From contig CAZECN010000005.1 in the NCBI GenBank assembly GCA_964510575.1, forward strand, positions 18,518-82,517: a stretch of DNA of 64,000 nt, written 5' to 3'. Shown piece after piece: positions 11,402 to 12,793 of this stretch. Both the position numbers and the translations under genes were made by a program. The notes beneath the pieces were generated by a model. That model saw only the letters and a list, made by a program, of their open reading frames with translations, did no database searches and was not told the DNA's origin. Source of the DNA: an uncultured Bdellovibrionales bacterium (GTDB lineage: Bacteria; Bdellovibrionota_C; UBA2361; SZUA-149; CALKYB01). Each line of letters starts with the position of its first letter. The stretch's first letter is position 1.

Positions 11402-12793
11402 ATGTTTGCTTTAGAAATTGATTTTCATGATGGCGTTAGTAGTCCGGAAGTTCTGCTAATTAGAAGGCCAATTGCCTTGGTTGGCACTAGTGAGTTTGCC
11501 CATGTTGTAATCGATGGTGCTGCGGCTAATCTCGCTGAACTAAGAATTTTTCGAGAGATAGAGGGAGGATTTTCTTGCCAAGTGAATTCTCGAGATCGGG
11601 GAGCTGAAAATTCTAGAAAAGATGAAAGTTTTGATAAGTTTGCTAGGTTGGAACTTGGCGAAGTGACGACTTCAGTCACTTCCCTAGACTATGATCTTGC
11701 TGTCAGGCCGGAGGAGTCACCGGATAGTGCCGCGCTGAGAATTGCTCAAGAGGCTCTAACCAGCAGAGCACCTAAGCTTCCAGCATTGGCTTTGCTGGGA
11801 GCAAAAACTGTCTTTGTTTCCATTCTGGCGAATACAGGGGTGGTATTGGGCCGTTCAAGGAAGAGTTTAATTCGTTTAGATGCGCCTGATGTCAGTGGTG
11901 AACATGCCAGGATGGGTTATGACAATAATAGCTTTTGGATTGAGGATCTAGGGAGTACCAATGGTACTTTTGTCGAAGGAGAAAGAATTTCTGGTAGAGT
12001 TAATTTTATCCCTGGGCAGAGAGTGAGGCTAGGGGGTGAAACTGTAATTGGAGGAGTCGAGAAAGCGCAGGATGTGGAGCTTTATCGGAATATTGAAGGT
12101 GAGGCCAAGCAGGATGACCCTCGAGGCAAGTATCCTTGTGTTGTATCAAATTCCGAACTTATTAAACCGGCTCGTATACCTCTGGTTTTAGGTAGAACTA
12201 TTTCGATGGGAAGAGATCCTTCTAATGATATCTGGGTTGGAGCATCGCACATTTCAAGGAACCATTGTTATGTAACTTTCGAGGACAGTGGAACAGTTAG
12301 TGTCAAGGACGAAAGTTCCAACGGAACGTTTTTAGGTGAATCCAAACTCAACAAGGGAGAGGCTACTGACATTGTCTCAGATAATTCCATCATCCATTTA
12401 GGCTCAGAACTTTGTATTAAAGTTTGTTTTGATAAAGCTAGTGAAGAAACTTTTCTTGAAGAGCACAAGCAAATTGAGCCAGAGTTTGTTAAGGAATCAG
12501 ATATTAATGCGATGGAATTAACATCACTATCTGCTAAAGCAGTCAGCCCTGCCACAGACGATCCTGAAAACAGGATTGAAGGCGATGGGGTTTTTGCAAA
12601 GTTAGCAAGGAAACGTTCTAGTGAGTCTAATCTTTTGAACCCTGTTTTAGATCCTAACCGAATGCAGTCAAAGCTTAGCACTCAATCTATTCAGAGAAAA
12701 AACTCTTCTCGCCTTATTACTTCCCTAGCTCTTGTCTTTTGCATATTAATATTGTTGGGCTGGATTGCTTATAATCTTTACAGAATAATATAG
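11402..12793 (+). CDS. Tail-anchored protein with three FHA(-like) domains (SctD-cytoplasmic-domain-like N-terminus)
   Basis: FHA-2: VVLGRS...SGEHARMGYDNNSFWIEDLGSTNGTFVEGERI. FHA-3: LVLGR...ISRNHCYVTFEDSGTVSVKDESSNGTFLG. The N-terminal ~95 aa are a degenerate FHA resembling YscD/EscD N-termini. A single TM helix lies 8 aa from the C-terminus (ITSLALVFCILILLGWIAYNLY). Confidence 0.7.
   Translation: MFALEIDFHDGVSSPEVLLIRRPIALVGTSEFAHVVIDGAAANLAELRIFREIEGGFSCQVNSRDRGAENSRKDESFDKFARLELGEVTTSVTSLDYDLAVRPEESPDSAALRIAQEALTSRAPKLPALALLGAKTVFVSILANTGVVLGRSRKSLIRLDAPDVSGEHARMGYDNNSFWIEDLGSTNGTFVEGERISGRVNFIPGQRVRLGGETVIGGVEKAQDVELYRNIEGEAKQDDPRGKYPCVVSNSELIKPARIPLVLGRTISMGRDPSNDIWVGASHISRNHCYVTFEDSGTVSVKDESSNGTFLGESKLNKGEATDIVSDNSIIHLGSELCIKVCFDKASEETFLEEHKQIEPEFVKESDINAMELTSLSAKAVSPATDDPENRIEGDGVFAKLARKRSSESNLLNPVLDPNRMQSKLSTQSIQRKNSSRLITSLALVFCILILLGWIAYNLYRII

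Follow-up and report, generated by a model that had tools for sequence, protein, structure and literature searches.

Does a protein that takes the place of SctD in a gene cluster similar to type III secretion systems (T3SS), and which has the build of its cytoplasmic half, also do the work of SctD? The question is raised by a locus of an uncultured Bdellovibrionales bacterium (GCA_964510575.1, contig CAZECN010000005.1, positions 18,518–82,517 of the forward strand), a stretch of 64 kb referred to here as the window. At 11402–12793 it encodes a protein with three forkhead-associated (FHA) folds, a disordered tether and a C-terminal membrane anchor, termed the triple-FHA protein in the following. 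SctD consists of an N-terminal cytoplasmic FHA-fold domain, one transmembrane (TM) helix and a large periplasmic ring-building domain; it forms a 24-mer ring around SctJ and contacts the secretin and SctK. The FHA domains of the classical SctD proteins YscD, PrgH and MxiG are reported to lack phosphothreonine (pThr)-binding residues and to have no part in phospho-signalling. In a preliminary description, the triple-FHA protein was tentatively read as the sorting-platform-facing half of SctD.

The triple-FHA protein holds the gene position and the topology of the SctD cytoplasmic half. On balance, it is probably a phospho-dependent inner-membrane scaffold with a tail anchor, dedicated to a T3SS-like export apparatus of the Bdellovibrionota that has neither needle nor secretin. 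The machine itself is best read as T3SS*-like and Kil-like, after the systems described in Myxococcus xanthus. The nearest alternative is that the protein is a structural substitute for SctD, i.e., a constitutive, stoichiometric component with its TM helix around the SctJ ring and its FHA domains facing the SctQ pods. As such a machine has no secretin to connect, the periplasmic half would be dispensable. This alternative is regarded as rather unlikely, and the evidence on both sides of it is given below with each part of the protein and its locus.

Three FHA Folds on a Membrane Tether

The gene starts with ATG 21 nt past the stop codon of the upstream gene. The N-terminus of its product (MFALEI) is conserved throughout the family, and the alignment contains no N-terminal signal peptide. 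The parts of the gene are the following, where ORF stands for open reading frame and pLDDT for the predicted local distance difference test score:

11402–12793, + strand: tail-anchored triple-FHA gene, ATG start, 463 aa (ORF list, homologues, family architecture)
11402–11701, + strand: module 1, residues 1–100, family-specific degenerate FHA fold without pThr-binding residues
11720–11761, + strand: helix joining modules 1 and 2, residues 107–120 (AlphaFold2 secondary structure)
11783–12058, + strand: module 2, residues 128–219, canonical FHA with G150, R151, S165, H168 and N187 (best Pfam PF00498 stretch, 147–211)
12137–12427, + strand: module 3, residues 246–342, canonical FHA with G270, R271, S285, H288 and N307 (second Pfam FHA stretch)
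12464–12703, + strand: disordered linker of variable length, residues 355–434 (pLDDT <50)
12713–12769, + strand: C-terminal TM helix, residues 438–456, followed by 7 residues and the stop codon (hydropathy 2.69; AlphaFold2 helix)

The three FHA-type modules of the preliminary description are borne out: the ORF coordinates are exact, two FHA domains are recognized by Pfam, and module 1 appears as a β module in the AlphaFold2 model. The full-length model (32-sequence alignment, mean pLDDT 75) has β modules at residues 2–94, 128–219 and 246–342, a helix at 107–120, a further helix between modules 2 and 3, disorder at 359–431, and a confident C-terminal helix at 435–462 (pLDDT ~95). The single TM helix near the stop codon, with essentially nothing beyond the membrane, likewise stands, as seven residues follow the best hydrophobic 19-mer (438–456).

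This architecture is uniform across the family. In 120 of the 124 full-length representatives, the TM helix lies at most 15 residues from the C-terminus and is the only strongly hydrophobic segment. The linker ranges from ~60 to ~330 residues and holds a single short conserved amphipathic helix at ~397–406 (GVFxxLAxR); linker length is the sole difference of the longest members (622–717 aa). The SctD-like topology and the degenerate N-terminal FHA fold favor a structural substitute for SctD, whereas a disordered tether that varies between 60 and 330 residues is hard to fit with a rigid ring element.

Two other explanations of the C-terminus were rejected. A truncated gene, pseudogene or assembly artefact is contradicted by the 120 tail-anchored representatives and by the longest members, which merely lengthen the linker. 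A sorting signal of the PEP-CTERM/GlyGly-CTERM type would require a conserved motif ahead of the TM helix, and the alignment has none.

Modules 2 and 3 as Canonical FHA Domains

Pfam family PF00498 matches the protein in two stretches (E 1.5e-31, 109 bits versus a cut-off of 20.7) in a scan of every ORF of at least 120 aa within the 64 kb. The GR...S..H...NGT signatures, which had led modules 2 and 3 to be called canonical, are read directly in the sequence as G150-R151...S165-x-x-H168...N187-G188-T189 and G270-R271...S285-x-x-H288...N307-G308-T309, respectively. Among 149 family sequences, module 3 retains all five canonical pThr-binding residues in every case (149/149), and module 2 retains G in 149, R in 146, S in 140, H in 148 and N in 137. 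When profiles of the two modules were compared with PDB sequences, the best matches were established pThr-binding FHA domains. The module 2 profile matches ArnA, GarA and the CT664 FHA domain (E 6e-14 to 2e-9), and the module 3 profile matches Rad53 FHA1 at 2e-10 and CT664 at 2e-8. This pattern suggests that modules 2 and 3 are selected for their pThr-binding residues, from which actual pThr binding may be inferred.

Some of these comparisons favor a structural substitute for SctD. CT664, i.e., CdsD, is an SctD with canonical FHA domains, and it matches the module 2 and module 3 profiles at 2e-9 and 2e-8. Module 3 also gives a weak hhalign match to the N-terminal domain of YscD (probability 65%, E 6e-5), in which GRDPxNDIW resembles GSDPLQSDIVL; this is the sole sequence echo of SctD. 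On the other side, YscD, PrgH and MxiG are missing from the PDB-sequence matches of both profiles at E<10, and the invariant pThr-binding residues favor regulated over constitutive binding.

Family models point away from SctD as well. The PF16697 match (51.7 bits, cut-off 33.2) falls on the canonical modules, where it overlaps PF00498 and is far weaker than the 109 bits of the latter. The NCBIfam scan of the triple-FHA protein lists no SctD family at E≤0.01; its best matches are FhaB/FipA, OdhI and TagH from type VI secretion systems (T6SS), all below threshold. The TagH/Fha1 model TIGR03354 scores 60.5 bits (2.4e-16) against a cut-off of 120.25; therefore, the triple-FHA protein is not a TagH member.

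Module 1 as a Family-Specific FHA Fold

No part of the protein is better conserved than module 1 (mean column identity 58%), whose signature E5, F8, D10, R21-R22, G28, D96 and D98 is present in at least 95% of the 149 sequences. Modelled alone, it reaches a pLDDT of 76.7 and a predicted template modelling score of 0.66. Structure comparison gave scores of 9.7 for Xrs2, 9.3 for MDC1, 9.2 for Rv1747, 9.0 for both CT664/CdsD and EssC, 8.4 for PrgH, 7.5 for MxiG and 6.5 for YscD. Since Xrs2, MDC1, Rv1747 and EssC outscore the N-terminal domains of PrgH, MxiG and YscD, module 1 is no closer to SctD than to FHA domains generally. Thus, the degenerate FHA fold that had been ascribed to this module is confirmed, and the specific likeness to YscD/EscD is not.

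The sequence of module 1 gives the same picture. A profile built from residues 1–130 of 23 members matches neither PDB sequences nor Pfam families. Among 1.84 billion representative proteins, its matches number only 147; nearly all of these lie at residue 1 of family proteins of 410–690 aa, and none is an SctD. A comparison with SctD N-terminal domains, proposed in the preliminary description as a check, came out negative: hhalign against verified YscD and PrgH N-domain sequences gives a probability below 1%, and Foldseek returns the same generic FHA set at E ~1e-2. Sequence homology between module 1 and SctD was rejected on the combined PDB, Pfam, representative-protein and hhalign results, and this lack of relation, together with the NCBIfam result, counts against a structural substitute for SctD. 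Module 1 as a diverged copy of module 2 or 3 was rejected as well, because hhalign reveals only a shared boundary peptide. Being both the most conserved part and unique to the family, module 1 fits a dedicated, co-evolving partner.

The Gene Cluster and Its Conservation

The triple-FHA gene is part of a single co-directional array (1248–20673) of Tad genes, SctV, a pseudokinase, the triple-FHA gene itself and a T3SS-like core. The order is Flp pilin, RcpC/CpaB, CpaF, TadB, TadC, SctV, pseudokinase-TM-HEAT protein, triple-FHA protein, Zn-ribbon-FHA protein, SctJ, orf75, SctO/FliJ, SctQ, SctR, SctS, putative SctT and SctU, followed by a 168-aa ORF and a small TPR protein. The remaining genes of the window are housekeeping genes. 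The neighbors of the triple-FHA gene in the array are the following:

1248–6324, + strand: Tad pilus module with Flp pilin, RcpC/CpaB, CpaF ATPase, TadB and TadC (Pfam; genes called in L081, see below)
6476–8680, + strand: export gate of the SctV/FlhA family (PF00771, 1.1e-165; hrcV 511 bits versus FlhA 482 bits)
8735–11380, + strand: receptor-like pseudokinase of 881 aa with one TM helix and a C-terminal HEAT half (Pfam Pkinase, HEAT_2)
13021–14142, + strand: protein with a zinc ribbon, a long charged disordered region and a C-terminal FHA domain (Pfam FHA 1.1e-7, UPF0547/zinc-ribbon)
14352–15275, + strand: SctJ-type inner-membrane ring lipoprotein (PF01514; TIGR02544, 99.7 bits; lipobox and C-terminal TM helix)
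15319–15546, + strand: orf75, a small conserved protein between SctJ and SctO (tblastn, at least 25 loci)
15665–19647, + strand: SctO/FliJ, SctQ, SctR, SctS, putative SctT and SctU (Pfam, NCBIfam; SctT by position only)
20278–20673, + strand: small TPR protein at the end of the cluster (Pfam TPR_19)

The locus has the core of a T3SS*, with SctV, J, O, Q, R, S and U detected and SctT assigned by position only. The region covered by the searches comprised the window and the 8 kb upstream of it on the same contig (72 kb; the upstream piece is L081). No SctD periplasmic domain, secretin, SctN (the F1-type T3SS ATPase), SctK or SctL was found in these 72 kb, and no needle gene was recognized, a result that speaks for this locus alone. 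CpaF is the sole secretion ATPase, and there is a secretin for neither the Tad nor the T3SS-like system. One suggestion, that the outer half of SctD is missing, is therefore upheld for the locus, and the joint absence of this domain and of a secretin favors a structural substitute for SctD. The absence of SctK, SctL and SctN, the known partners of SctD, counts against it; with the invariant pThr-binding residues, it also speaks against the role at a sorting platform that had been envisaged.

Conservation of the cluster was studied by tblastn with the window proteins against 35 related loci, 25 of which reach far enough downstream. All 25 have the order triple-FHA gene, Zn-ribbon-FHA gene, SctJ, orf75, SctQ, SctR, with the triple-FHA gene leading an operon that runs on through SctO and SctQ to SctU, and in nearly all loci the Zn-ribbon-FHA gene is the next after the triple-FHA gene. 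The position upstream of sctJ in 25 of 25 loci is a further point for a structural substitute for SctD. The half-SctD reading of the preliminary description is thus partly supported, by topology, fold and the position by sctJ (with SctQ downstream in all 25 loci), though with no such support for homology or ring-building. Seven residues after the TM helix leave no periplasmic ring-building domain, and no PF16693-type match was found.

Only the closer relatives (L001, L002, L008, L009 and L035) have Tad genes, SctV and the pseudokinase on the upstream side. The T3SS-like core is kept where Tad genes and kinases drop out, and is thus the constant companion of the triple-FHA gene.

A distant clade, which includes a complete metagenome-assembled genome (MAG) of 2.28 Mb, was annotated in detail at 11 loci, ±10 kb around the operon. 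Here, the operon opens with a small FHA protein, followed by the triple-FHA gene. It abuts housekeeping genes, namely RNase E/G in 11 of 11 loci, MreB in 9 of 11 and ComEC in 9 of 11. The site is conserved beside RNase E/G, a GAF protein, MreB and ComEC, and such a conserved chromosomal site suggests vertical inheritance. Ahead of the operon in this clade come a short FHA protein of 120 aa and an ORF of 130 aa (L006:8682–9452). Secretin, ATPase and FHIPEP are absent from the recurrent flanking families of the 11 loci, as are the SctN/SctL ATPase complex and SctD.

The family is sizeable. The first homology search yielded at least 451 homologues (36–68% identity, ~430–720 aa), and about 150 clusters have the triple-FHA and tail-anchor build. 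Named homologues come from Bdellovibrionales, Oligoflexia, ‘Deltaproteobacteria’ and Dadabacteria MAGs and are labelled only ‘FHA domain-containing protein’. In a scan of species-representative genomes, full-length relatives were found only in Bdellovibrionota-type MAGs; phyla outside Bdellovibrionota, Myxococcota included, gave single-FHA matches only. No Tad or T3SS genes were detected by tblastn at the Myxococcota single-FHA loci. In the literature searched, no description of the Bdellovibrionota cluster or of the triple-FHA family was found, and the build of three FHA folds, tether and tail anchor with nothing periplasmic was not found described before.

A Probable Phospho-Dependent Scaffold and Its Alternatives

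The invariant pThr-binding residues, together with a kinase, a PP2C phosphatase, a pseudokinase and further FHA proteins in the cluster, point to phospho-signalling. Genes in the 8 kb upstream of the window specify a hybrid histidine kinase, a PP2C phosphatase, a further FHA protein, a kinase of the Hanks type and an ATPase resembling TadZ. PP2C, this second FHA protein and the kinase are located 5–8 kb further up than the pseudokinase. More precisely, PP2C, a 358-aa weak-FHA protein and a 527-aa Hanks-type kinase occupy L081:3796–7527, just upstream of the TadZ-like gene, and the hybrid histidine kinase/response regulator precedes them.

The 881-aa protein directly upstream of the triple-FHA gene has a fold like that of kinases and is matched by Pfam Pkinase at residues 94–237 with a score below cut-off (30.7 bits). 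Its HRD motif reads LGD, its DFG motif reads YFG, and the catalytic-loop Lys and Asn are lost, changes that have probably abolished catalysis. The kinase-like part is joined by a Ser/Thr-rich linker and a single TM helix to a HEAT half of ~460 aa that would be periplasmic. In the Zn-ribbon-FHA protein, the disordered middle is highly charged and Ser/Thr-rich, with the FHA domain at the C-terminus. The pairing of zinc ribbon and FHA recalls GltJ/GltG of the Myxococcus gliding machine. Both proteins are candidate partners of the triple-FHA protein, upstream and downstream, respectively.

In the scaffold reading, the C-terminal helix would pin the protein in the cytoplasmic membrane with essentially nothing in the periplasm, and the long flexible linker would let the head of three FHA domains reach the cytoplasmic face of the machine. 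Modules 2 and 3 would act as working readers of phosphothreonine on targets phosphorylated by a Hanks-type kinase. The Ser/Thr-rich juxtamembrane region of the pseudokinase, the disordered region of the Zn-ribbon-FHA protein and the protein's own linker are candidate ligands, and the PP2C phosphatase could erase the marks. Module 1, with its invariant surface, may dock constitutively on a core component, i.e., SctQ, the SctJ tail, orf75 or SctV. The net effect would be phosphorylation-gated recruitment, clustering or activation of an export apparatus which, in the clade of the window, is encoded together with a Tad pilus. Inferred within this reading are that modules 2 and 3 bind pThr, which ligands they bind, that module 1 docks, and what follows for assembly. 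By analogy, the mode of action proposed for the triple-FHA protein is that of FHA scaffolds in other envelope machines (Fha1/TagH, CdsD and the Kil FHA proteins).

Several points weigh against the scaffold reading. Within ±10 kb of the operon in the distant clade, the recurrent families include no kinase, so that the kinase link is local only in some genomes. The cluster has no T3SS ATPase, and most loci have no SctV within 10 kb; hence, the completeness and activity of the machine are unproven. In addition, a scaffold and a structural substitute for SctD can overlap, and the data separate the two poorly. A T3SS locus of Myxococcales with neither SctD nor secretin offers a precedent for the structural substitute.

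Another alternative places the protein on the Tad/Kil side, where, with the pseudokinase, it would regulate the assembly of the pilus and not the T3SS-like core, as a counterpart of MXAN_4648/4649, a pair of kinase-like and FHA proteins beside KilH and KilG. The window order TadB, TadC, SctV, pseudokinase, triple-FHA protein invites this idea, since Kil cluster 2 of M. xanthus has the row KilB, KilG, KilH, FHA protein and kinase-like FHA-TPR protein. However, most loci, among them the 11 annotated in detail, keep SctJ, SctQ and SctR while tblastn detects neither Tad genes nor SctV nor a pseudokinase within 10 kb upstream, and the genome scan revealed only single-FHA matches in Myxococcota, which makes a Tad/Kil-side component improbable. 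A general Ser/Thr-kinase adaptor with an incidental link to secretion, or what is left of a decaying full-length SctD, is barely credible: FHA domains are generic modules and the best sub-threshold NCBIfam matches include the housekeeping FHA proteins FhaB/FipA and OdhI, but strict synteny with the T3SS-like core across divergent genomes, strong purifying selection along the whole length, the architecture shared by 120 of 124 representatives (hence no truncation artefact or pseudogene) and the lack of a PEP-CTERM/GlyGly-CTERM-type motif ahead of the TM helix all speak against it.

Relation to Known Secretion and Predation Systems

With SctD (YscD/PrgH/MxiG/EscD), the triple-FHA protein shares an N-terminal FHA fold without pThr-binding residues, a single TM helix, an N-terminus on the inside and a gene upstream of sctJ. 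It differs in having no periplasmic ring domains, three FHA folds (two of them canonical) instead of one and a long disordered tether, as well as in the missing homology of module 1 and the absence of SctK, SctL, SctN and secretin genes nearby. Chlamydial CdsD (CT664/Cpn0712), an SctD with extra canonical FHA domains that is reported to be phosphorylated by PknD, comes closer: it is a T3SS inner-membrane protein with several cytoplasmic FHA domains, and a kinase link is plausible for both. However, CdsD keeps a TM helix and a periplasmic half like that of YscD and functions together with secretin and needle, whereas the triple-FHA protein ends at its TM helix.

Fha1/TagH of the T6SS, a protein with one FHA domain and no known tail anchor, is likewise an FHA scaffold whose gene belongs to a secretion cluster with a Hanks-type kinase and a PP2C phosphatase. 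It serves another machine, and the triple-FHA protein is by score no member of its family. In Pseudomonas, Fha1 takes part with the PpkA kinase and the PppA phosphatase in a threonine phosphorylation pathway by which assembly is phospho-gated, and the mechanism proposed for the triple-FHA protein is of this kind.

The degenerate FHA domains of EssC/YukB from the type VII secretion system (T7SS), and Rv1747, with two FHA domains and a phosphorylatable disordered linker, share the combination of multivalent FHA domains and Ser/Thr-rich linkers. Their FHA domains are fused to an ATPase or transporter, whereas the triple-FHA protein consists of FHA folds and an anchor only. By this analogy, multivalent FHA domains with disordered Ser/Thr-rich linkers at the membrane suggest clustering behavior.

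The closest parallel to the locus as a whole is found in M. xanthus, which kills prey by Tad-like Kil machinery along with a needle-less, secretin-less T3SS*, both recruited to sites of prey contact. The Kil clusters are rich in FHA proteins (KilD, the N-terminus of KilF, MXAN_3104 and MXAN_4648/4649). Beside KilH and KilG they have two such proteins, a kinase-like one with FHA and TPR domains and one that HHpred matches to PrgH. Abby and Rocha described two T3SS loci of Myxococcales without secretin or needle, the short one also without SctD; in reviews, SctD, SctN and SctL are given for M. xanthus. Shared with the window are a Tad module, a T3SS core without secretin and needle, the over-representation of FHA and a kinase-like protein. 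The window differs in phylum and in having both modules in one gene array, it lacks SctD, SctN, SctL and a Tad secretin, and in the genome scan relatives with all three FHA modules came only from Bdellovibrionota MAGs. The array looks like a physically fused Bdellovibrionota counterpart of the Myxococcus Kil and T3SS* pair.

More speculatively, a T3SS-derived core without SctD ring, secretin and ATPase of its own could form one hybrid machine with the Tad pilus, in which the triple-FHA protein would replace the cytoplasmic face of SctD and link the machine to kinase signalling, either as a living ‘pre-SctD’, with FHA folds and TM helix not yet fused to periplasmic ring domains, or as a derived split form. 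This is considered doubtful; if true, Kil/T3SS* predation machinery would extend beyond Myxococcota, and the locus would provide a minimal system for the coupling of machines. Independently of this, Tad and T3SS-like genes are here fused in one array outside Myxococcota, and FHA folds recur as docking and switching modules in SctD of the T3SS, Fha1/TagH of the T6SS, EssC of the T7SS and the Kil FHA proteins of Tad-like systems. A confirmed scaffold would give a handle on how the needle-less T3SS* is switched at cell contacts, a point stated to be open for Myxococcus, and would test how much of SctD a secretin-less machine needs.

Further Observations on the Cluster

Some neighbors of the triple-FHA gene have features of their own. 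The orf75 product (72–96 aa) has invariant L23, D25, G26, D36, R58 and R67; a role as a FliG-N-like adaptor, which would have provided a link from ring to C-ring in the flagellar manner, was rejected, as it has no Pfam or PDB match and an hhalign probability to FliG of 0.1%. That the CpaF ATPase carries an N-terminal FHA domain like that of KilF was also rejected, with no Pfam match at E≤1. SctU (18901–19647, 248 aa) covers positions ~2–235 of the 335-position FlhB/YscU model and ends directly past the TM domain and linker, as it does in a distant relative (L006:16514–17368). Since the coverage ends early, the C-terminal autocleaving (NPTH) substrate-switch domain is missing.

The small TPR gene keeps its position at the end of the cluster in L006, L022–L024, L031, L034 and L035, and its product is plausibly a class II chaperone, as judged by size, TPR content and position. 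Beyond it lie a 110-aa ORF (21129–21461, − strand) and two divergent genes of the sigma-70 family (21455–22333, − strand, and 22745–23524, + strand). L007, L013 and L032 have all three, L018, L021, L031 and L035 have one or two; sigma-70 genes that travel with the cluster suggest dedicated transcriptional control.

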